Below, piece by piece: positions 2,767 through 40,906 of a DNA stretch of 40,906 nucleotides (its first letter is position 1; each line of letters starts with the position of its first letter). Made by a program: the position numbers and the translations under genes. The stretch lies in IMG/VR virus record IMGVR_UViG_3300021431_000039; one strand, written 5' to 3'. A model generated the notes under the pieces. It searched no databases. It saw only the letters and a program-made list of their open reading frames with translations, and was not told the DNA's origin. Origin of the DNA: a virus.

Positions 2767-4650
2767 ATGGTTTTCAAAGGCTATGCGACAGGCACAGGAA
2801 AGAAAGCAACCATGAAGGTCAAGGATGCACAGCTTCTTTCATGGGATGATGTTCAAGGGAATCAGTCATTTGGTGCAATTCTGAATCATGATTTTGTTGA
2901 TATTTCATTTGATACTGATGAACTGTCACAGAAGTTTTGGGATATGGCAGAAGAGAATAACTGGAATTGTTTGATTCTTGAAAATCCTGAAAATGGACAC
3001 ATTCACAGTTATTGGAAGGACACAGAACACAGGATTGAAAAGGGTGGAAAGGATAAAAAACTAGCAGTTGGATTGATTGCAGATATTCATTCAGGATCAA
3101 CATACATACCATTAAGAGTCAATGGTGTTGATAGATTTCCACCATCTTTTGAACCTGATGACATTGATGAAGTTCCTGATGAATTGATTCCTGTGAATAC
3201 AACCATCAATCTTGCAGACTTGCAAGAAGGGGATGGAAGGAATGATGAATTGTTCAAATACATCCTGATTCTTCAGTCACAGCTTATGTTGGACAGAGAA
3301 CCAATAAAAAGGGTGTTAGATAATATCAATCACTTTATCTTTCAGGATGCGTTATCAGAAGAAGAAATGGATGTCATCACAAGGGATGATGCATTTGCAA
3401 AACCAATCTTCTATAAAGGAAAAATGTTCTTGCACAATGCTTTTGGTCAATACATGAAAAATGAATATCACATCAAAAGAATTCAGGGACAGCTTCATGT
3501 GTATGATGGTGGGATTTATAAATCAGGTTACAGGTTTATTGAATCCAAGATGGTTGAATTGATTCCAACACTGAAAGCAAATCATAGGGTGGAAACCCTA
3601 AAGTATTTGGAAATCATCACACCTGAAGAAACACAGGTTGCAGATGCAAATCTGATTGCATTCAGGAATGGTCTTTATGACTTAGCAACAGATGAACTTC
3701 TTCCATTCAGTCCTGATCATGTTATTACAAACATGATTCCTTGGGACTATAACCCTGAAGCGTACAGTGAATTGTGTGATAAGACCTTGAACAAAATATC
3801 CTGTCAGGATGATGAAATCAGGGCATTGCTTGAAGAATGTATTGGATATTGCTTCTTTAGACAAAATGAATTATCCAAGTCATTTTTCCTGACAGGTTCA
3901 GGAAGTAATGGTAAATCAACATTTTTGGATATGGTGAAGAATGTACTTGGAAGACAAAACTATGTGTCATTGGATATGGATGAACTTGGTGAACGATTCA
4001 GTACAACAACCATGTTTGAAAAACTTGCAAATATTGGTGATGATATCAGTGATGAATTCCTTCAAGGAAAAACACTTGCACAGTTCAAGAAGATTGTCAG
4101 TGGAAATGATATCAAGGCAGAAAATAAAGGTCAGGATGCATATTTCTTCAAACCAACAGTCAAGCTGTTATTCAGTGCAAATGAAATTCCAAGAATGAGA
4201 AACAAAGGATTTGAAGCGATCAAAAGAAGACTTGTCATCATTCCATTCAATGCTAAATTTAACAAGAATGATGATGACTTTGATGCAGGGATCACTTGGA
4301 AGCTGAAAAAACAGGATGTTGCAGAATACCTGATAAAACTTGGTATTGAAGGATTGAAAAGAGTTCTGACAAATCAGGGATTCACAGAATCACAGAAGGT
4401 AAAGGATGAAGTTGACAACTTTGAAAAAGACAACAATCCAATTCTTCTATTCTTGGAAACAGTGGAAGAAGATGAAATTCTGAACCATGAAACCAAAGAA
4501 GTATTTGCAAGGTATGACACATTCTGTAATGAAAATGGATTCACAAGAATTGCAATGCAGACTTTCACCAAGGAAATCAAAAAACATCTTGGATGTGACA
4601 GGAAGGATGTCAGACTGAATGGCAGAAAGGCAATAATTTTTATTAAGTAG
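2767..4650 (+). CDS. Primase-helicase (N-terminal prim-pol-like domain plus D5/P4-type SF3 helicase)
   Basis: Walker A GSGSNGKST, Walker B-like IGDDIS, and typical P4/D5 C-terminal organisation. ATG 2767 follows GGAAAGGAAAC; alternative start TTG 2746. Confidence 0.85.
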   Translation: MVFKGYATGTGKKATMKVKDAQLLSWDDVQGNQSFGAILNHDFVDISFDTDELSQKFWDMAEENNWNCLILENPENGHIHSYWKDTEHRIEKGGKDKKLAVGLIADIHSGSTYIPLRVNGVDRFPPSFEPDDIDEVPDELIPVNTTINLADLQEGDGRNDELFKYILILQSQLMLDREPIKRVLDNINHFIFQDALSEEEMDVITRDDAFAKPIFYKGKMFLHNAFGQYMKNEYHIKRIQGQLHVYDGGIYKSGYRFIESKMVELIPTLKANHRVETLKYLEIITPEETQVADANLIAFRNGLYDLATDELLPFSPDHVITNMIPWDYNPEAYSELCDKTLNKISCQDDEIRALLEECIGYCFFRQNELSKSFFLTGSGSNGKSTFLDMVKNVLGRQNYVSLDMDELGERFSTTTMFEKLANIGDDISDEFLQGKTLAQFKKIVSGNDIKAENKGQDAYFFKPTVKLLFSANEIPRMRNKGFEAIKRRLVIIPFNAKFNKNDDDFDAGITWKLKKQDVAEYLIKLGIEGLKRVLTNQGFTESQKVKDEVDNFEKDNNPILLFLETVEEDEILNHETKEVFARYDTFCNENGFTRIAMQTFTKEIKKHLGCDRKDVRLNGRKAIIFIK

Positions 4651-5418: not shown

Positions 5419-5912
5419 TGAATTATCATAATATTACAAAAGATGATATGAACAATGGTGATGGTTTGCGTGTTGTTCTTTGGGTAGCAGGATGCAGTCA
5501 CCATTGTAAAGGTTGTCAGAACCCTGTGACATGGAATCCTGATGATGGTATTGAATTTGATATCAGAGCAAAGAATGAAATCTTCAAGGAACTGAAAAAA
5601 AAGCACATTGCAGGAATCACATTTAGCGGTGGTGACCCTTTATTTTCAACCAACAAGGGGACAGTTTTCAGTCTGTGTCAGGAAATCAAAAAGATGTTTC
5701 CAACTAAGACCATCTGGATTTATACAGGCTATGATTGGGAAGATATAAAAAACGAACCATTGATGAAATATATTGATATTTTAGTAGATGGAAAATTCAT
5801 TGAAGAATTGAAGGATGTCAATTATCCTTGGGCAGGTTCTATCAATCAAATGGTAATTGATGTTCAGGAATCATTAAAAGAAAAGAAGGTGATTTTACAT
5901 GAAAGTAATTAA
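5418..5912 (+). CDS. nrdG: Anaerobic ribonucleotide reductase activating protein (radical SAM)
   Basis: CSHHCKGCQNP (CxxxCxxC) cluster motif. About 160 aa. Overlaps and precedes nrdD. Confidence 0.9.
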   Translation: MNYHNITKDDMNNGDGLRVVLWVAGCSHHCKGCQNPVTWNPDDGIEFDIRAKNEIFKELKKKHIAGITFSGGDPLFSTNKGTVFSLCQEIKKMFPTKTIWIYTGYDWEDIKNEPLMKYIDILVDGKFIEELKDVNYPWAGSINQMVIDVQESLKEKKVILHESN

Positions 5913-8019
5913 GAAAGATGGAACACTTGAAGACTACAATTTTATAAAGATTAAAAATGCAGTCACAAAATCTGCAAAAAGAGTCATGATTGACCTTGAT
6001 GATGAAGCATTTGACAGACTAAAAGACATTGTTGAATTAAAACTGTCATTGCTGAACACAGAACTGATTCCAATTGCAGACATGCACAATGTTGTGGAAG
6101 AATCATTGGAACAGTTTGATCCAAGAATTGCAAAATCTTATAAAGATTATCGCAACTATAAAAAGGATTTTGTTCATATGATGGACAAGGTATATCAGAA
6201 ATCACAGTCCATCAGATTCATTGGTGATAAAGAGAATGCAAACACTGACAGCACATTGGTAGCAACTAAAAGATGCTTAATATTCAATGAGCTAAATAAA
6301 AGACTGTACAGAAAGTTTTTTATGACACAGGAAGAACTTCAAGCATGTAAGGATGGTTATATCTATGTGCATGACCAATCAGCAAGATTGGACACAATGA
6401 ACTGTTGTCTGTGTGATGTGGCTTCAATTATGTCAGGTGGTTTTGAGATGGGTAACGTTTGGTATAACGAACCCAAAACACTTGATACAGCATTTGATGT
6501 TATGGGTGATATCATCCTTTCAACAGCATCACAACAATATGGTGGATTCACAGTTCCTGAAGTAGACAAGATTCTTGCACCTTATGCTGAAAAGTCATTC
6601 AAGAAATATATTAATGAATATCTGAACATCACTGTAGGTGATCATAAAAATGCAGAATGTTGGGCAAGAAGCAAAGTTAAAAGAGACTTTGAACAGGGGT
6701 TTCAAGGAATAGAAATGAAGCTGAACACAGTTGGTTCAAGCAGAGGTGATTATCCATTTGTCACAATGACGTTTGGTCTTGCAACAGACGAATTTGGAAA
6801 GATGGCATCCATCACATTCCTTGAAGTTCATGCAAAGGGACAGGGCAAGGAAGGAAACAAAAAGCCTGTGTTGTTTCCTAAGTTGGTATTTTTGTATGAT
6901 GAAAATCTGCATGGTGAAGGATGCATCAATGAAGATGTCTTTGAAGCAGGGATTGAATGCAGTTCCAAAACAATGTACCCTGATTGGTTATCACTGACAG
7001 GTGAAGGATATGTTGCTTCCATGTATAAGAAATATGGAAGGGTTGTTTCCCCTATGGGATGTAGGGCATTCTTATCACCTTGGTATGAAAAAGGTGGAAT
7101 GCAACCTGCTGATGAATCAGACAAACCTGTGTTTGTTGGAAGATTCAATATTGGTGCAGTCAGTCTTCATCTTCCAATGATTCTTGCAAAGTCAAGACAG
7201 GAAAATAAAGACTTCTATGAAGTCCTTGATTATTACCTGAATATGATTAGGAAAATCCATCAAAGAACCTATGACTATCTTGGTGAAATGAAAGCATCAA
7301 CCAATCCTATCCAATACTGTGAAGGTGGTTTCTATGGTGGGCATCTGAAACCTTCAGACAAAATCAAACCATTGCTGAAACCAATGACAGCATCTTTTGG
7401 AATTACAGCATTGAATGAACTTCAGGAACTTTACAATGGGAAATCCCTTGTGGAAGATGGACAGTTTGCATTGGATGTTCTGAAGTATATCAATGACAAG
7501 GTGAATGAATTCAAGGAAGAAGATGGTTGGTTGTATGCGATCTATGGAACACCTGCTGAATCACTTTGTGGTCTTCAGATTGAACAGTTCAGAAAAATGT
7601 ATGGTGTGATTGAAAATGTATCTGACAGACCTTATGTTTCAAACAGTTTCCATTGTCATGTGACTGAAAATATTACACCAATTCAGAAGCAGGATTTAGA
7701 AGGTAGATTTTGGGATTTATGCAATGGTGGGAAAATCCAATATGTTAGATATCCAATCAGCTACAACAAAGATGCAATCAGGACATTAGTCAGAAGGGCA
7801 ATGGATAAAGGTTTCTATGAAGGTGTGAACTTGTCACTTGCATATTGTGATGACTGTGGACATCAGGAACTTGAAATGGATGTGTGTCCTGTGTGTGGTT
7901 CAACGAACCTGACAAAGATTGACAGAATGAATGGTTATTTATCATATAGCAGGGTACATGGTGATACAAGATTGAACAGTGCCAAAATGGCAGAAATTAA
8001 AGAAAGGAAATCAATGTAA
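5899..8019 (+). CDS. nrdD: Anaerobic (class III) ribonucleoside-triphosphate reductase
   Basis: N-terminal ATP-cone-like segment, C-terminal zinc ribbon CDDCGH...CPVCGS and glycyl-radical motif RMNGYLS. 706 aa. Confidence 0.9.
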   Translation: MKVIKKDGTLEDYNFIKIKNAVTKSAKRVMIDLDDEAFDRLKDIVELKLSLLNTELIPIADMHNVVEESLEQFDPRIAKSYKDYRNYKKDFVHMMDKVYQKSQSIRFIGDKENANTDSTLVATKRCLIFNELNKRLYRKFFMTQEELQACKDGYIYVHDQSARLDTMNCCLCDVASIMSGGFEMGNVWYNEPKTLDTAFDVMGDIILSTASQQYGGFTVPEVDKILAPYAEKSFKKYINEYLNITVGDHKNAECWARSKVKRDFEQGFQGIEMKLNTVGSSRGDYPFVTMTFGLATDEFGKMASITFLEVHAKGQGKEGNKKPVLFPKLVFLYDENLHGEGCINEDVFEAGIECSSKTMYPDWLSLTGEGYVASMYKKYGRVVSPMGCRAFLSPWYEKGGMQPADESDKPVFVGRFNIGAVSLHLPMILAKSRQENKDFYEVLDYYLNMIRKIHQRTYDYLGEMKASTNPIQYCEGGFYGGHLKPSDKIKPLLKPMTASFGITALNELQELYNGKSLVEDGQFALDVLKYINDKVNEFKEEDGWLYAIYGTPAESLCGLQIEQFRKMYGVIENVSDRPYVSNSFHCHVTENITPIQKQDLEGRFWDLCNGGKIQYVRYPISYNKDAIRTLVRRAMDKGFYEGVNLSLAYCDDCGHQELEMDVCPVCGSTNLTKIDRMNGYLSYSRVHGDTRLNSAKMAEIKERKSM

Positions 8020-26181: not shown

Positions 26182-26408
26182 ATATACCATTATCTGTCTT
26201 ATTAGAAAATACAAAAATCAGAATGAATGATTCTGTGAATAAAGTTATTCAGGAATCAAATCTTCCTGCTTATCTGATAGAAGGAATTCTGTCAGATATT
26301 CTTGCAGAAGTCAGAAAACAGAAGAATCTTGAATTAGCATCTGACTATGCAAGTATGAATAAAGAAAATCAGAAAAATGAAGAAGATGAAAAGGAAGGTG
26401 AAGAATAA
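26178..26408 (+). CDS. Hypothetical small acidic protein (76 aa)
   Basis: ATGA overlap with Tal and TAATG overlap with the fibre gene. Confidence 0.55.
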   Translation: MNIPLSVLLENTKIRMNDSVNKVIQESNLPAYLIEGILSDILAEVRKQKNLELASDYASMNKENQKNEEDEKEGEE

Positions 26409-28504
26409 TGGCAAACATTAAACCCTATACAGATGAAATTGCAAATGCTGTGTATGGTGAAGAAGTCAGAAGTTCAATCATCAATGCACTGAATAAAGTC
26501 AATGATGATAATAACAGTTATCAGGACATCAAGAATCAGATTGTTGCTTCCAAGGATGATGTTGATGAAGCTGTTTCAGAATTTGATGCAAAGGTTGCTT
26601 CAGCACAAGATGCAACAACAGCACTTATCAATGCAACTACTTCAGCAAACACGACAAAGTCTGAACTTATCAATGCAACTACTTCAGCAAACACAGCAAG
26701 AACCAACTTAGTTTCTGCAACTACTTCAGCAAACAATGCTGAAAGCACACTGAAGTCAGCAACATCAACTGCACAGACTGCAACAGCATCTGCAAATGAT
26801 GTAAAGAAGAATCTTGATTCTTCCATCAGTTCAGCAAATAGTGCTAAATCTGCACTTGATACTGCAATCAGCAACGCAAATACAGCTAAATCAAATCTTG
26901 ATACAAGTACATCAACAGGTAGCACTGTAAAGAACAATCTTGATACTGCAATCAGTAATGCAACCGATGCAAGAAGTGAATTGAATGCAGTTATTAGTTC
27001 GGCACAGTCTGCACAGTCATCTTTGTCAGGTGTTATTGCACAGGCATCAACAGCACAGACAAACCTTCAGAATGCAACTAACAGTGCAACCAATGTCTTC
27101 AATCAGCTTACTGCTGAAAATGTTTCAGCAAAAGCAAACCTTGATGCATTAAGAAGTGAAGACTTCAATGCACAGGAAATTCTGTCAGGTGTAACAGATA
27201 TCAGAGCATATCTTGGAATGATTGAAACAGAAGATGTTCTTGGTATCACTATGGACTATAAGAACAAGACCTGCACAAGAATAGCAGGTGCAAAGAATCT
27301 GACAGCAGGTGCAGACTTTGACAAGTTCAACATGTATGGTGGAAGAAAAAGATGCAATGTGTCGGATGGTGGAACAATCAACGCTTACTATGGTGATGAA
27401 AATTACACAGAAGATGGTTCAAATGGTCAGGTCATGGTATATCAGCCTAAGTTCTATTATCTTGTGTGTCCACTTGAATATGACAGACAGGAAACAGGCT
27501 ATGGTTATCATTTAAGAAAAGCAAACTACTATGTCAGTGAAAAACAAAGGGCTGGATTCAAACTTCATCCTGCATTCTATGACAAGAATGGAAATGAAGT
27601 TGATTATATCCTTATGTCAGCATATGAAGGATGTATCTATGACACATCTGCAAATGCTTATATGCTGAATGATGAACAGGTTATGGATGCTTCTGAAGAC
27701 AAGTTCAGTTCCATTGCAGGTGCAAGACCTGCAACAGGTGTATCACAGAATCTGACAAGACCAAACATTGAACAGATGGCAAAGAATAGGGGTGAAGGCT
27801 GGCATTCCTTTGGAATCAAAACAGCATCTATGGAACAGTTGCTGATGATTGTTGAAATGGGAATGATGAATCTTCAAACTGCTATTGGTCAGGGTGTTGT
27901 CAATCTTCCTTGGACAACAGGTTCTGACACAACAAGTTCTTATGCAGGTGCAACAGGTTCAACTGCTTCACTTGGTAATGGAACAGGTAGAGCAACAGAA
28001 ACAACCACATATGAAGGTGGTGTTGCAACAGAAAACACAGCAGATGGAAAAACTTCTATTTGTTATCGTGGTGTTGAAAACTTTTGGGGTAACATTTGGA
28101 AGTTTGTCTATGGTGTAAATATTTGGGGCAATGGAAAAATGGCAGGTGGTATGCCTTACATCTGTTCAGACTTCAATTACGCTGAAGGAAAGAACACAGA
28201 CAATTATGAAGGTGCAGGATTCACAGTCACAAAAGCAAATGGATATATTTCAGCAATGGGATATTCTACTAAATATGACTGGTTATTCATGGCATCTGAA
28301 TGCCTTGGGAACAGTTCATTGCCTGTTGGTGATTATACTTATATCACTGAAAACCTAAATGGATATAGGGTTCCTCTATTGGGCGGTGGTTGGGGTCATG
28401 GTTCTGTTGCAGGTGGTTTCTATTGGGGTTTGCATGGCGGTGTTGGGGGTCGTGATCGTGGTATCGGCGGTCGCTTGGTGTATGTACCAACAGTCACTGT
28501 TTAA
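26408..28504 (+). CDS. Tail fibre / receptor-binding protein; DGR target with a C-terminal C-type-lectin (FGE-like) variable region
   Basis: Conserved fibre N-terminus, a Ser/Ala/Thr/Asn-rich repeat stalk, and a C-terminal ...GGGWGHGSVAGGFYWGLHGGVGGRDRGIGGRL encoded by the VR. Confidence 0.8.
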   Translation: MANIKPYTDEIANAVYGEEVRSSIINALNKVNDDNNSYQDIKNQIVASKDDVDEAVSEFDAKVASAQDATTALINATTSANTTKSELINATTSANTARTNLVSATTSANNAESTLKSATSTAQTATASANDVKKNLDSSISSANSAKSALDTAISNANTAKSNLDTSTSTGSTVKNNLDTAISNATDARSELNAVISSAQSAQSSLSGVIAQASTAQTNLQNATNSATNVFNQLTAENVSAKANLDALRSEDFNAQEILSGVTDIRAYLGMIETEDVLGITMDYKNKTCTRIAGAKNLTAGADFDKFNMYGGRKRCNVSDGGTINAYYGDENYTEDGSNGQVMVYQPKFYYLVCPLEYDRQETGYGYHLRKANYYVSEKQRAGFKLHPAFYDKNGNEVDYILMSAYEGCIYDTSANAYMLNDEQVMDASEDKFSSIAGARPATGVSQNLTRPNIEQMAKNRGEGWHSFGIKTASMEQLLMIVEMGMMNLQTAIGQGVVNLPWTTGSDTTSSYAGATGSTASLGNGTGRATETTTYEGGVATENTADGKTSICYRGVENFWGNIWKFVYGVNIWGNGKMAGGMPYICSDFNYAEGKNTDNYEGAGFTVTKANGYISAMGYSTKYDWLFMASECLGNSSLPVGDYTYITENLNGYRVPLLGGGWGHGSVAGGFYWGLHGGVGGRDRGIGGRLVYVPTVTV
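26624..26749 (+). repeat. Three tandem 42-nt (14-aa) repeats (LINATTSANTxxxx) in the fibre stalk; more degenerate copies continue to about 27150
   Basis: Units 26624-26665, 26666-26707 and 26708-26749 are near-identical at the nucleotide level. Confidence 0.85.
28367..28484 (+). repeat. DGR variable region (VR)
   Basis: Ungapped alignment to 28584-28701. There are 31 mismatches, all opposite TR adenines. Confidence 0.9.
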
Positions 28505-28583
28505 TTAAATATATGGGTTAGGTAATTGTTGATGGCAACATCTTCCACCTTGTTGTTATATCTGTACACAATAAAACATTTTC

Positions 28584-28701
28584 AAGATTACTCAATTAGG
28601 CAGTAATTGGAATAATGGTTCTAATGCAGGTAGTTTCTATTGGAATTTGAATAACAGTGTTGGGAATCGTAATCGTAATATCAGCAGTCACTTAGTAAAT
28701 G
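28584..28701 (+). repeat. DGR template repeat (TR)
   Basis: Contains 40 adenines. In the VR frame it reads KITQLGSNWNNGSNAGSFYWNLNNSVGNRNRNISSHLVN (AAY-rich). It is non-coding and lies between the target gene and the RT. Confidence 0.9.
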
Positions 28702-28713
28702 CGTGGTTGATTT

Positions 28714-28741
28714 CAGGCAGTCCAAAAGGACTGTCTGTTTT
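28714..28741 (+). other. Strong hairpin 12 nt after the TR (10-bp stem with one G-U pair, AAAA loop, then TTTT): DGR RNA spacer structure or intrinsic terminator
   Basis: CAGGCAGTCC-AAAA-GGACTGTCTG-TTTT. A second 7-bp hairpin lies at 28796-28815. Confidence 0.55.
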
Positions 28742-28913
28742 CATATAAAAATTGTGGAAATTACTTGACCCTGCCACTTGGCAAAACACAAAAGTCTGTC
28801 ATTCATTGATGACAGCACATGGAATAAATCTGTTTTGGTAAATCCTGAAGGGAAGTTGAAGAATCAGAAACACGCATACAAAAATGACAGAAAGAATTGG
28901 TGGTTGTGATTAT

Positions 28914-30032
28914 ATGAAGCGTTATGGACATTTATATAAAAAGATTTATGATATGGAAAATTTGAAGTTGGCACACCAACATGCAAAGAAAGGGAAAGGA
29001 TTGTATGCAGAAGTACAAATGATTGATTCTGACCCTGACAAGTACCTGAAGGAATTGCAGGACATGCTGATAAATAAAACCTATCATACATCTGAATATG
29101 AAGTGTTCTATAAAAATGAGCATGGGAAGATAAGAAAGATTTATAAACTTCCTTATTTTCCTGACAGGGTTGCACAGTGGGCAATCTTGCAGGTAATTGA
29201 ACCATATTTGATCAAGCACCTTATTTCTGATACCTTTTCAGCAATACCTGACAGGGGAATTCATAAAGGACTTAGCAGGGTAATGAAAGCAGTTCAACAT
29301 GATGTTCCAAACTGTCAATATTGTTTGAAGATAGATGCAAGACATTATTATCAATCAGTGAATCATGACATTCTGAAACAGAAATACAGAAAGATGTTCA
29401 AAGACAATGACCTTCTTTGGATTCTTGATGAAATCATTGATTCAATCAATACAGCAGAAGATGAAGACCTTGTTTCAATATGGTTGTTAGATGAAGACAT
29501 TGATCCAAACACAGGGATTCCAATTGGAAACTATCTGTCGCAGTATAGTGGGAATTATTACTTCAGTGATTTTGATCATTGGATAAAAGAAGTCAAGCAT
29601 GTCAAATACTACTTCAGATACATGGATGACATTGTAATTCTTGCAAGAACTAAGAAAGAATTGCATCAGTTGCTGAATGAAATCAATGAATACTTTCATA
29701 AAAATATGAAGTTAAAAATCAAGAAGAATTATCAAGTGTTTCCAACTTATGTCAGGGGTATTGATTACCTTGGTTATAGAGTGTTTGTTTCCTATGTGTT
29801 ACTAAGAAAGCAGACTTGCAAAGACATGAAGAAGAAAATGGTGAAGATAAAGAAGAAAGTTGAATCAGGGAACATGATGAACTATTCAGAATGGTGTTCA
29901 ATAAATTCTTACAAAGGTTGGACTAAGCATGGAAATTGTTTCAGACTGACACAGAAATATATTGAACCATTGATTCCATATGCAACTAAATATTATGAAT
30001 TGAATGTCAAGAAAGGTGGAAAAGTAGCATGA
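28914..30032 (+). CDS. DGR-type reverse transcriptase
   Basis: IPDRGIHKG, LKIDARHYYQSV, IPIGNYLSQYSGNYYF (DGR-specific [IV]GxxxSQ motif), YMDDIVIL (YxDD), IDYLGYRV. ATG 28914 gives the usual MKRYGHLY...NL..A start; the track start is 28884. Confidence 0.9.
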   Translation: MKRYGHLYKKIYDMENLKLAHQHAKKGKGLYAEVQMIDSDPDKYLKELQDMLINKTYHTSEYEVFYKNEHGKIRKIYKLPYFPDRVAQWAILQVIEPYLIKHLISDTFSAIPDRGIHKGLSRVMKAVQHDVPNCQYCLKIDARHYYQSVNHDILKQKYRKMFKDNDLLWILDEIIDSINTAEDEDLVSIWLLDEDIDPNTGIPIGNYLSQYSGNYYFSDFDHWIKEVKHVKYYFRYMDDIVILARTKKELHQLLNEINEYFHKNMKLKIKKNYQVFPTYVRGIDYLGYRVFVSYVLLRKQTCKDMKKKMVKIKKKVESGNMMNYSEWCSINSYKGWTKHGNCFRLTQKYIEPLIPYATKYYELNVKKGGKVA

Positions 30033-30295
30033 AACAGTATGGAACACAAAGAAGCACAGTGAAACCTGAAGATGTGGAAATCACTGAATCAAAGGTCTTC
30101 AGTTATGAAAATATCACTGAAATCAAGGTGAAGAATCCTGAATCAGATGATGAAGTCACAATGTATGAATTCACTTTGACAGAGTATGACAAAGATGAAT
30201 ATATCAGGATTCAGGCAGAAAAGAATGCAAGTCTTGAAGAACAGATGACACAGACACAGGTTGCACTGTGTGACGTGTATGAAATGTTAGCATAG
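30029..30295 (+). CDS. Hypothetical acidic protein (88 aa)
   Basis: ATGA overlap with the RT stop. No motif recognised. Confidence 0.55.
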   Translation: MKQYGTQRSTVKPEDVEITESKVFSYENITEIKVKNPESDDEVTMYEFTLTEYDKDEYIRIQAEKNASLEEQMTQTQVALCDVYEMLA

Positions 30296-30312: not shown

Positions 30313-30453
30313 ATGGTGAAGATTTATGCAACACTTATCATCAAGGGAATCAAAACCATTGATGATGTACCAACAAGAATCAAAGATGAAGTCAGGCAGG
30401 AATTGATCAAAGAAGGTCATCCTGAACTTGCTGAAGTAGGTGATGAAGGTTGA
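30313..30453 (+). CDS. Micro-protein (46 aa), paralogue 1 (CD1375-like?)
   Basis: Hand translation gives MVKIYATLIIKGIKTIDDVPTRIKDEVRQELIKEGHPELAEVGDEG. RBS GAAAGGA lies upstream. Not in the track because it is under 60 aa. Confidence 0.5.
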   Translation: MVKIYATLIIKGIKTIDDVPTRIKDEVRQELIKEGHPELAEVGDEG

Positions 30454-30500
30454 TAACCAATCTTATCATAAATATTTTATTTAGAAAGGAAGTGGAAAAC

Positions 30501-30632
30501 ATGGCAGTCGTATATGCAACACTTATTATCAAAGGTGTGAAGACAATTGATGATGTCCCTGCAAGAATCAAGGACAAGGTTATTCAGGTTCTGATTGACC
30601 TTGATTGTCGTGATTTAGCAGGTCAGGCATAA
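30501..30632 (+). CDS. Micro-protein (43 aa), paralogue 2
   Basis: MAVVYATLIIKGVKTIDDVPARIKDKVIQVLIDLDCRDLAGQA. ATG follows GAAAGGAAGTGGA. Confidence 0.55.
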   Translation: MAVVYATLIIKGVKTIDDVPARIKDKVIQVLIDLDCRDLAGQA

Positions 30633-38967: not shown

Positions 38968-40789
38968 TTTTCATTTTTCAACAGCAGAATGTTTTGAAAA
39001 TTGTCCTGCAAGATTTGATTTCAGATACAGACAGAACCTTGAAGTGCTTCCAACAGATGATCCTGCAAATCCATTGATTCTTGGAACAGCAATTCACAGG
39101 GGCATGGAAAAGGATATGAAAACAGCTATTCAGGAATACAAAGATTCATATCCTATCATCACAGATGCACACATTAATGAGATCATCAAACTTGAATATT
39201 GGATTCCAAGAATGAAAGAACTTCTTCCTGATGGATTTCATGAAGTCAATTTCAAGAATGATGTTTATGAAGGAACCGCAGACTTGATTGTTCCATGTAC
39301 CAAGCATGATGCAAGTCTTCCACATGGTCAGTTTGATATATATGATTTCAAGTATTCAAATAATATTGACCATTATATGGAATCAAGACAGTTGCATGTA
39401 TACAAATATTTCTTTGAAAGAATCACAGGAAAGCACATCAGAAAAATGTATTTTGTGTTTGTTCCAAAGGTTCAGATTAGACAGAAGAAAACAGAAACAC
39501 TTCAGGACTTCAGGAACAGAATCTATGAAGAACTTGAAGCAAAGGAAATTCAAATCAAAGAAGTGGTTTATGACCCTTCCAAGGTTGCAGATTTTTATGA
39601 AACGTGTATGAACATTGGTCTAACAGATAAGTGTGAAAAGAATGAATCTTATTTGTGTGATTGGTGTGAATATAAAGACTATTGTCAGAAAGGATTGGAC
39701 TATATGATTTTACCAAGTGCAGAAAGAAGACAGGTTGGAAAGACAACCAAAAGAAAATTATGGATTTATGGTGGTGCATTTTCAGGAAAGACAACATTTA
39801 TGGATTCAGCACCTTCACCATTGAATCTGAACACTGATGGAAACATTCAGTTTGTTACTATGCAGTATTTACCTATCAAGGACACAATGGAAGGAAGACA
39901 GAAGATTCTTGCATGGGATGTTTTCAAGAAAGCTATTGATGAACTTGAAAAGACAGCAGGTCAAAATGGATTTAAAACTCTTATTGTTGACTTATTAGAA
40001 GATACTTATGAATCATGCAGATTATACATGTATGACAAATTAGGTATCACACATGAATCAGATGATTCATTCAGAGCATGGGACAAGGTAAGAACGGAAT
40101 TCTTATCAACTATCAGAAGATTGATGAACCTTGACTATGAGAACATTGTGTTGATTTCTCATGAAGATACTTCAAAGGATATCACAAAGAAGTCAGGTGA
40201 TAAAATCACAGCAATCAAACCAAATATCGCAGACAAGGTTGCAAACAAAATTGCAGGTATGGTTGACATTGTGGCAAGGGTAGTTGTGGAAGATGATGAA
40301 ACAAGAACATTGAATTTCAAATCAAATGAAGTAATCTTTGGTGGTGGAAGATTAAAGAACATCAAGACCACATCAATTCCTTTGGATTGGAATGAACTTT
40401 TGAAAGTGTATGATGAAGCAAATTTTTTTGCCAAGCCTGCTGAAGAAATTCAGGAAGATGCAAAAGAAACTGCTGAAGAAACACCAACAAGAAGGAGAAG
40501 AAAATCACGCACACAGTCAGAACCTGTTAAAGAACCTTCTGAAGAACCTGTACAGGATGGAATAATCGACACTGATTCAGAAACAGTTGTCTTGGATGCA
40601 GACACATACTTCTATGATATTAAAAATGACAATTATGTGATGAAACATGCAGGTGATTCTGTTGACATGATTGTTGATGGTGTGGAAGTCATGAAGATCA
40701 TCACTAAAGAAGAATTTGCTGAAAAATATTTTGGTGATGAAAAACCTACAAGAAAAAGAAGAACAAGAAGAACAAGAAAGGAAAGATAA
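38960..40789 (+). CDS. Fusion protein: N-terminal Cas4/RecB-like PD-(D/E)xK exonuclease with a 4-Cys cluster, plus a C-terminal AAA_24 (Sak4/RecA-like) ATPase and a charged tail
   Basis: N-terminal C (ECFENC), D...DFKY, and C-x2-C-x5-C (CDWCEYKDYC). Then LWIYGGAFSGKTTF (Walker A) and LIVDLLED (Walker B). The tail is rich in E/K/R. Confidence 0.7.
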   Translation: MNNFHFSTAECFENCPARFDFRYRQNLEVLPTDDPANPLILGTAIHRGMEKDMKTAIQEYKDSYPIITDAHINEIIKLEYWIPRMKELLPDGFHEVNFKNDVYEGTADLIVPCTKHDASLPHGQFDIYDFKYSNNIDHYMESRQLHVYKYFFERITGKHIRKMYFVFVPKVQIRQKKTETLQDFRNRIYEELEAKEIQIKEVVYDPSKVADFYETCMNIGLTDKCEKNESYLCDWCEYKDYCQKGLDYMILPSAERRQVGKTTKRKLWIYGGAFSGKTTFMDSAPSPLNLNTDGNIQFVTMQYLPIKDTMEGRQKILAWDVFKKAIDELEKTAGQNGFKTLIVDLLEDTYESCRLYMYDKLGITHESDDSFRAWDKVRTEFLSTIRRLMNLDYENIVLISHEDTSKDITKKSGDKITAIKPNIADKVANKIAGMVDIVARVVVEDDETRTLNFKSNEVIFGGGRLKNIKTTSIPLDWNELLKVYDEANFFAKPAEEIQEDAKETAEETPTRRRRKSRTQSEPVKEPSEEPVQDGIIDTDSETVVLDADTYFYDIKNDNYVMKHAGDSVDMIVDGVEVMKIITKEEFAEKYFGDEKPTRKRRTRRTRKER

Positions 40790-40906
40790 TCATGAAGAAG
40801 TTTATTGAAGCATTAAAGGAAGCAGGAATTTATGACCAAATTGTTGAAGTAATCGTGGATGTCAGAAGTAAATATGGTGCATATGATGCAACCAAAGCAA
40901 TCACAA
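40780..40906. repeat. Terminal direct repeat, copy B (identical to 1-127); 40792-40906 duplicates the 5' part of CDS 13..414
   Basis: Exact identity to 1-127. Confidence 0.95.

Follow-up and report, generated by a model that had tools for sequence, protein, structure and literature searches.

A diversity-generating retroelement of target–template–reverse transcriptase order at the tail-fibre gene of a temperate gut phage

Fibre gene, repeat pair and reverse transcriptase

The stretch of viral DNA analysed here (IMG/VR record IMGVR_UViG_3300021431_000039; 40,906 nucleotides in its full length, hereafter the window) carries on one strand, in this order, a gene for a putative tail fibre, a non-coding template repeat (TR), a region of structured RNA and a gene for a reverse transcriptase (RT). 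The fibre gene ends in a variable repeat (VR) that is homologous to the TR. We read this ensemble as a diversity-generating retroelement (DGR) of simple target–TR–RT architecture that diversifies the tail fibre of a temperate gut phage, and we give this reading a probability of about 96%. The coordinates of all features are collected in Table 1. The fibre gene is located directly after the gene of a Prophage_tail/Peptidase_S74 protein and ahead of the holin–lysin cassette. Its product presents an Ala/Ser/Thr-rich coiled-coil region at the N-terminus and a globular domain at the C-terminus, which terminates in the VR. The open reading frame (ORF), as delimited in the original prediction (a model's reading of the letters of the window), was reproduced in its position and its length.

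The alignment of TR and VR spans 118 nt, is ungapped, and joins two copies that lie 217 nt apart. All 31 mismatches (31/31) fall on adenines of the TR, 9 of whose 40 adenines are retained in the VR, and the non-adenine positions are identical throughout (78/78). The probability that all 31 mismatches would land on the 40 adenine positions by chance is P ~1e-20. Recomputation returned every one of these numbers as they had been counted in the original prediction, and a repeat finder independently recovered the pair as the longest direct repeat of the region. Translated in the frame of the fibre ORF, the TR reads KITQLGSNWNNGSNAGSFYWNLNNSVGNRNRNISSHLVN. The substitutions in the VR of the window are predominantly A to G (25/31), a skew on which the original prediction had not remarked. 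When both strands of the window were scanned for further targets of the TR, no second VR was found. The TR ends 212 nt upstream of the start of the RT gene.

Table 1. Features of the retroelement and of its surroundings, in window positions
Feature	Position	Strand	Description
Putative tail fibre/receptor-binding protein	26408..28504	+	698 aa; PHROG 5302 'tail protein', E 7.7e-86
Variable repeat (VR)	28367..28484	+	whole TR-homologous block; fibre codons 654-693 of 698
Hypervariable VR core	28377..28463	+	TR positions 11-97; ten AAY-templated codons (Y, C or T) plus CAA, TAT and ATC codons
IMH-like VR 3' end (IMH, initiation of mutagenic homing)	28466..28484	+	GGCGGTCGCTTGGTGTATG; 19 nt, GC-richer than its TR counterpart, essentially invariant among VRs
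Template repeat (TR)	28584..28701	+	non-coding, intergenic; 40 adenines; 10 AAT codons and 1 AAC codon in the fibre frame
IMH*-like TR end	28683..28701	+	AGCAGTCACTTAGTAAATG; six adenines differ from the VR end
Conserved hairpin	28714..28737	+	12 nt past the TR; CAGGCAGTCC-AAAA-GGACTGTCTG, then TTTTC; from a terminator-like scan
Structured RNA region	28767..28881	+	immediately upstream of RT; Rfam RT-17 (RF03020), sub-threshold
UGCC-ACUU-GGCA hairpin	28772-28783	+	G:C to A:U covariation in the UGCC/GGCA stem
CUGUCAU/AUGACAG hairpin	28796-28815	+	
DGR reverse transcriptase	28914..30032	+	372 aa; alternative upstream ATG 28884 gives 382 aa
88-aa acidic ORF	30029..30295	+	start overlaps the RT stop; PHROG 18126, function unassigned
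Two tandem small CD1375-family ORFs (NF040910)	30313-30453, 30450-30632		between DGR and holin

The RT ORF contains an RVT_1 domain (4.3e-20), matches PHROG 1423 (1.4e-115) and presents the motifs IGNYLSQ and YMDD. DGR RTs carry the signature [I/V/L]GxxxSQ instead of QGxxxSP (PMC7826257). A search of all solved structures gave 8ub7_A as the top match (E 1.3e-25), and comparison with the annotated brt gene identifies this entry as the sequence of Brt, the RT of the DGR of Bordetella phage BPP-1. The best group II RT follows at 7.6e-12, so that Brt leads by 14 orders of magnitude. Compared directly, the two enzymes are 29% identical over 345 aa (E 7e-33). Residues R74 and I181 of Brt promote adenine mutagenesis (PMC7826257), and both are retained in the aligned RT of the window. 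Searches with tblastn found phage relatives of the RT in Psychrobacillus phage Perkons and in crAss-like, Faecalibacterium and Bordetella phages. While public gene calls place the start of the RT at ATG 28884, ATG 28914 is the likelier start, as the alignments with Brt and with the relatives begin there and the sub-threshold match to the Rfam family RT-17 (see below) extends to 28881. From this codon the protein begins MKRYGHLY and aligns with residue 3 of Brt.

Were the RT that of a group II intron, a retron or a defence system, TR and VR would be an ordinary diverged duplication. The curated profiles lend this some colour: the best NCBIfam match is the group II intron RT/maturase TIGR04416 with 94.9 bits, and PADLOC returned generic RT/DRT matches only, of up to 111 bits. 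From neither resource, however, did a DGR-specific RT model come up, and the NCBIfam scores are far under their curated cut-offs (94.9 against 300 for TIGR04416, 66.8 against 200 for Drt3a, 45.6 against 390 for Drt2 and 35.9 against 235 for Retron St85), while the like-for-like search of solved structures places Brt first. At gathering thresholds no Rfam family was found in the whole window, hence no RNA model of a group II intron or a retron. An ordinary duplication would not put 31 of 31 differences on the adenines of one copy. The identity as a DGR RT that had been proposed for this ORF thus stands, on sequence comparison and motifs, and we regard an RT of another class as highly improbable.

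Variation among related loci

Relatives of the element were gathered in three ways: with the TR as a pattern in which each A was opened to N, by exact look-up of the RT protein, and by a scan of metagenomes with the RT protein. The last of these imposes nothing on the VR and does not bias the choice of loci by their VRs. When repeats with adenine-restricted differences were searched for de novo, the same layout emerged in ~85 loci with RTs that are 66–100% identical. In these loci a VR of 111–120 nt closes a homologous fibre gene, the TR follows 206–275 nt further downstream, and from there it is ~200 nt to the start of the RT. The TR/VR pairs each show 17–31 adenine-only mismatches and 0–2 others.

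Constancy of the template and variability of its target are seen best in 32 distinct close relatives (fibre 87–99% and RT 95–99% identical). TR positions 28–118 are identical in all of them (32/32); by comparison, 7–8% of columns vary in their flanking non-coding DNA, and their RT genes differ by ~4%. The VR, in contrast to the invariant TR core, is variable at 38 of its 118 columns: 33 correspond to TR adenines, and the remaining five are singletons. The original prediction had asked whether polymorphism is confined to the 40 adenine-templated positions. It is confined there, but hypervariability is limited to ~24 of the 40 adenines, at which all four bases were observed.

The same division is visible in the protein. 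A search with the C-terminus of the fibre gave at least 8,000 candidates at E <= 1e-5; the best 120 of these matches are all distinct, and 119 of the 120 have a length of 698 aa. We calculated residue entropies for 120 fibres (>=94% identical). Values of 2.6–3.4 bits were obtained at exactly the ten AAY-templated residues (661, 663, 664, 667, 674, 676, 677, 681, 683 and 685), residues 657, 672 and 686 (CAA, TAT and ATC codons) gave 1.2–1.5 bits, and nearly everywhere else the entropy was ~0–0.2. One identical backbone of 665 residues is found in 20 fibres with 20 different VRs, and nine more backbones are each associated with two to ten VRs. In nucleotide comparisons, the genome pairs that come nearest to each other without being identical show a difference of 0.6% across 3 kb of flank, compared with 15% in the VR; identical nucleotide flanks with different VRs were not encountered among 28 loci. 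An invariant TR set against hypervariable VRs on identical backbones argues, on the evidence of these sequences, that the DGR was clearly at work in this phage population in the recent past; the statement is made for the population and not for the single genome of the window.

A few relatives depart from the common pattern. In two of them, L014 (TR at 3253, in a minus-oriented locus) and L033, the first 20–25 nt of the TR match their own VR, and G is present at the quasi-fixed positions too. This suggests a VR-to-TR conversion, homing of the cDNA into the TR, or a chimera made in assembly between repeats 218 nt apart. In another relative, L072, the VR (2904–3013) shows only 8 adenine mismatches plus 7 non-adenine mismatches, and this pair may represent a decaying or recently recombined element.

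The VR of the window combines hypervariable positions with others that hardly vary. About 12 of its 31 mismatches are fixed or nearly fixed changes of A to G or T, and six of these cluster at the 3' end, at TR positions 100, 103, 107, 111, 114 and 115. In the fibre, residues 687–692 are GGRLVY in 120/120 proteins, at a place where the TR reads SSHLVN. The VR end TCGG(C/G)GGTCGCTTGGT is kept in all families, whose RTs are 66–97% identical. An operational definition of IMH and IMH* is available from a large survey of DGRs (PMC5758913). The two ends agree with this definition, which is taken here as a sequence criterion only, in that they have a GC-rich start and that VR and TR ends are non-identical. 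The IMH-like block is thus a probable 3' boundary of information transfer.

Sequence context, spacer RNA and neighbouring genes

The bases found in place of TR adenines differ with the neighbouring bases, as counted in 83 distinct TR/VR pairs. At the first position of AAY the VRs have A in 34%, G in 38%, T in 23% and C in 5% of cases; at the second position before T the values are A 51%, G 31%, C 11% and T 7%. Where a TR adenine precedes a G, the VR has G in 96% of cases (n=601) and A in 4%, with C or T essentially never observed. These NAG sites include window positions 28381, 28385, 28411, 28415 and 28439 and the homologous columns in the related loci L003–L099. The outcome is the same where the protein would be indifferent to it: GCA became GCG in 61/64 cases (four-fold site) and TTA became TTG in 73/75 (two-fold site), compared with a synonymous A/G site in CAA before T that kept its A in 45/71.

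For the Bordetella RT in E. coli, misincorporation of dC (A to G) was found to be dominant except in AAC and AC contexts, and AAU codons were biased toward Gly and Asp (PMC12875486; bioRxiv 2025.08.18.670894). The predominance of A to G outside AAC contexts in our loci agrees with this published behaviour of Brt, and a G-rich, Gly-rich VR is to be expected since the TR uses AAT almost exclusively. For misincorporation in the NAG context, no figures were found in the text and supplements of PMC12875486. Several of the NAG changes convert Ser (AGY) to Gly, and selection for scaffold glycines could fix them. Random A-to-N mutagenesis followed by selection on the protein does not fully explain the conversion of NAG adenines to G. 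A tentative proposal, which we think possible and rather doubtful, is that in this Avd-less lineage the 3' neighbour programs the outcome at a TR adenine, such that NAG gives G almost deterministically and only AAY is truly randomised. If this were true, the TR would encode scaffold glycines cryptically as AGY, and the context-dependent error spectrum of the RT would itself separate scaffold from variable positions. Strong selection for Gly together with selection at the nucleotide level is a candidate alternative, and so is repair of G:T heteroduplex mismatches to the resident G.

The excess of G also invites an explanation without retrohoming, in which a duplicated segment underwent base-specific editing or hypermutation, by A-to-I deamination of the VR or by G-to-A change of the TR copy. 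Both the 25 A(TR)/G(VR) transitions among the 31 differences of the window and the near-uniform G at NAG adenines would suit such a process. It fails to account for the presence, at the same AAY positions of the relatives, of all four bases, with T at ~7–23% and C at ~5–11%. An invariant TR beside differing VRs gives the direction as TR to VR; the repeats invariably have a DGR-type RT and a conserved RNA next to them; and no deaminase is encoded nearby. We consider editing as the origin of the pattern to be extremely unlikely. A deaminase or hypermutation as the cause of the A-to-G excess was also rejected, because all four bases occur at AAY sites across the relatives.

The DNA between the TR and the RT gene is conserved and would give rise to a structured spacer RNA. 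The hairpin that follows the TR is replaced, at the same site in other families, by different and equally paired sequences (compensatory changes); it could be an RNA element of the DGR or an intrinsic terminator. Folding of 16 diverse spacers with RNAalifold gave three helices with compensatory changes in 9/13 pairs, and the structured region next to the RT gene includes a conserved tail, GCAUACAA. Its match to Rfam RT-17 has 31.1 bits (E 3e-4), where the gathering score is 40.4, and 0/16 related loci reach the gathering threshold. With RT-17 it shares a GACCNUGCC-loop-GGCAAAAC hairpin and a 3' GCAnACAA tail, immediately upstream of an RT gene; it differs in the sub-threshold score, which makes this a resemblance and not a membership. 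The core motif of the spacer RNA is also retained in Clostridium phage CS266P3. By analogy with the spacer RNA of Bordetella, the RNA probably recruits the RT.

The C-terminal 224 aa of the fibre form a module that recurs in 1503 cluster representatives; in 126 of the 145 examined it stands at the C-terminus, in proteins of many lengths. A GGxW...AGxF...GGRL block in this module gives a weak match, in register, to the VR of Mtd, the BPP-1 variable protein (residues 337–374; hhalign E 0.012, probability 3.7%); in the profile–sequence alignment the fibre block reads LLGGxW..G..AG.F......VG.R.R.IGGRL. A profile search of the PDB returned 5vf4_A at a non-significant E of 0.77, with the same GGxW...GGRL block and a GxENxWGNxW motif aligned. 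We take 5vf4_A to be a DGR variable protein. These weak matches are the only hints of a C-type lectin fold, which would be plausible for the fibre tip. The N-terminal region of the fibre contains, at window positions 26598–26723, three head-to-tail repeats of 42 nt (14 aa) plus degenerate copies, with a 20-nt core, TGCAACTACTTCAGCAAACA, that occurs exactly three times.

The small ORFs near the element comprise solely an 88-aa protein and two CD1375-family mini-proteins. In all ~95 loci the 88-aa ORF follows the RT at a distance of 0–36 nt; phage CS266P3, which has no RT, lacks it. Since these phages are syntenic throughout, the constant adjacency is weak evidence of a role in the DGR. In a direct comparison with BPP-1 Avd, the 88-aa ORF gave no alignment. 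Tail modules of Firmicutes phages have small genes between fibre and holin. We suspect that the ORF is such a tail-module gene rather than a DGR component, with TR and RT inserted between it and the fibre gene, and we offer this as a lead. The two CD1375-family ORFs share a direct repeat of 83 nt with 76% identity (30325–30407 and 30513–30595).

Phage CS266P3 (OP172777.1, L100), which has been cultured, deserves a comment of its own. It encodes an unannotated fibre homologue of 60% identity (46742–47830, spanning the ends of the record), with a VR at ~14–119, a TR at ~252–357 and ~30 adenine-only mismatches between them. A tblastn search over its 47.9-kb genome found no RT. The pair is either a relic or a cassette for which a resident prophage of this family supplies the RT in trans.

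The window has an exact direct repeat of 127 nt at its termini (1–127 and 40780–40906), and this overlap indicates a circular, complete phage genome assembly of ~40,779 bp. It encodes a DNA polymerase, primase, NrdD, terminase, portal, major head protein, tape measure, holin and lysin. An integrase and an S24-type repressor are recognised from matching ORFs of the window together with the Pfam-annotated genes of the near-identical contig L017. The host genome of the element is a temperate, siphovirus-like phage of ~40.8 kb, and its source is human-gut Lachnospiraceae with Blautia-type hosts. The related loci lie on human-gut metagenome contigs of up to 340 kb and in one metagenome-assembled genome of a Lachnospiraceae, and Blautia coccoides has one annotated fibre that is 95% identical to that of the window. 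In a nucleotide search of 50,697 deposited phage genomes the sole match was a stretch of 107 nt, the TR-like sequence of CS266P3. The NrdD-like anaerobic ribonucleotide reductase is full-length (5899–8019; PHROG 487, E 1e-234), and a phage-encoded NrdD is consistent with an anaerobic gut host. At the cut edge of the related locus L094, downstream of the lysis region (7700–7759), a c-di-GMP-I riboswitch aptamer scores above its gathering threshold.

Proposed mechanism and relation to known systems

The features described above can be joined in a model of adenine-directed retrohoming. The TR would be transcribed together with the structured spacer RNA, and the RT would copy it into a cDNA that is faithful except opposite adenines, where mostly dC would be misincorporated to give A-to-G changes. 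The cDNA would then replace the homologous VR at the 3' end of the fibre gene. The fixed, GC-richer IMH-like block would mark the 3' boundary of the transfer and make it one-way. The ten AAY residues and a few others of the C-terminal domain of the fibre would be re-randomised while the scaffold is kept, and receptor specificity would presumably be altered; the variable residues may take part in receptor binding.

Several observations weigh against this account. Two other contigs with an identical RT, L017 and L018, carry the VR of the window unchanged. Searches with Pfam, NCBIfam, PHROGs, PADLOC and the PDB, including those of the small nearby ORFs, turned up neither Avd nor HRDC nor any other recognised accessory gene. 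About 12 TR adenines are nearly always G in the VRs, synonymous sites included. A conserved GC-rich inverted repeat or cruciform after the VR was not found in the window or in more distant families; the sole palindrome downstream of the window VR is an AT-rich one of 6 bp (AACAGT-C-ACTGTT), which is not conserved in these families. The C-type lectin fold named in the original prediction is unconfirmed: an AlphaFold model from a shallow alignment of 27 sequences has a pLDDT (predicted local distance difference test) of 25.6. With 79 sequences of more diverse homologues the value rises to 55.7, with the VR part disordered and below 50; Foldseek returned noise and no real match for this second model, and Pfam scans of the fibre and of 41 diverse members of the domain found no family, lectin and FGE (formylglycine-generating enzyme) included.

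Two of these points lose force when they are set against the known diversity of DGRs. Among 372 curated DGRs, 29% are without accessory genes (PMC5758913), so that a missing Avd does not exclude membership. The GC-rich inverted repeat downstream of the IMH is present in about a third of DGRs, and its absence is the majority state (PMC5758913).

The unchanged VR of L017 and L018 bears on a narrower possibility, namely that this is a true DGR by descent which is now inactive in this genome, its VR the frozen product of past homing. That the only other contigs with an identical RT have exactly the same VR is in agreement with inactivity, as is the unusual G-richness of the window VR (25/31 substitutions). 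These two contigs may, however, share a strain or a sample. The RT ORF is unbroken and has kept every catalytic and DGR motif, and the TR, the spacer RNA and the IMH-like block are identical or nearly so to those of relatives in which identical backbones bear different VRs. We judge inactivation in this genome to be unlikely, and we retain the reading of a DGR that diversifies the fibre.

The element is a canonical DGR, and its Avd-less target–TR–RT architecture is already known. DGRs are the best-understood case of natural targeted protein hypermutation and are common in gut phages; another one is not surprising. The observations at its margins (the A-to-G outcome at NAG, the RT-less cassette of CS266P3 and the RT-17-like RNA) outweigh the element itself in interest, and none of them is established. 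The family is of some practical use: it is plentiful in public data from the human gut, it has a minimal TR–RT layout without Avd, and its host (Blautia coccoides) is likely cultivable. It amounts to a natural data set on the sequence context of adenine mutagenesis, a question first taken up in recent work, which was confined to the Bordetella enzyme in E. coli.

Comparison with the DGR of BPP-1 (mtd–avd–TR–brt) provides the closest reference. In both, the gene for a phage receptor-binding tail protein carries the VR at its 3' end, the TR precedes the RT at a short distance, and the differences between the repeats are adenine-only. Both have a GC-rich (IMH-like) VR end distinct from the TR end and a structured spacer RNA between TR and RT, and the RTs, with 29% identity, share the signature motif, R74 and I181. 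The element of the window differs in that it lacks avd, in that its TR has AAT codons (10) rather than AAC (1), and in that no conserved inverted repeat follows its IMH-like block. Beyond the weak in-register match of the VR block, its fibre has no detectable similarity to Mtd. It is in gene order, and in the lack of a recognisable accessory gene, the same as the Avd-less Architecture A1 (target–TR–RT), which comprises 75/372 DGRs and includes one entire RT lineage without avd (Wu et al. 2018, PMC5758913). With the DGRs of temperate and crAss-like gut phages (Hankyphage, PMC6199706; Faecalibacterium prophages, PMC11792537) it has in common its ecology and a diversified tail protein, and the RTs of crAss-like and Faecalibacterium phages are ~35–43% identical to that of the window by tblastn. 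It differs from them in phage lineage and in host, here Lachnospiraceae of the Blautia type.

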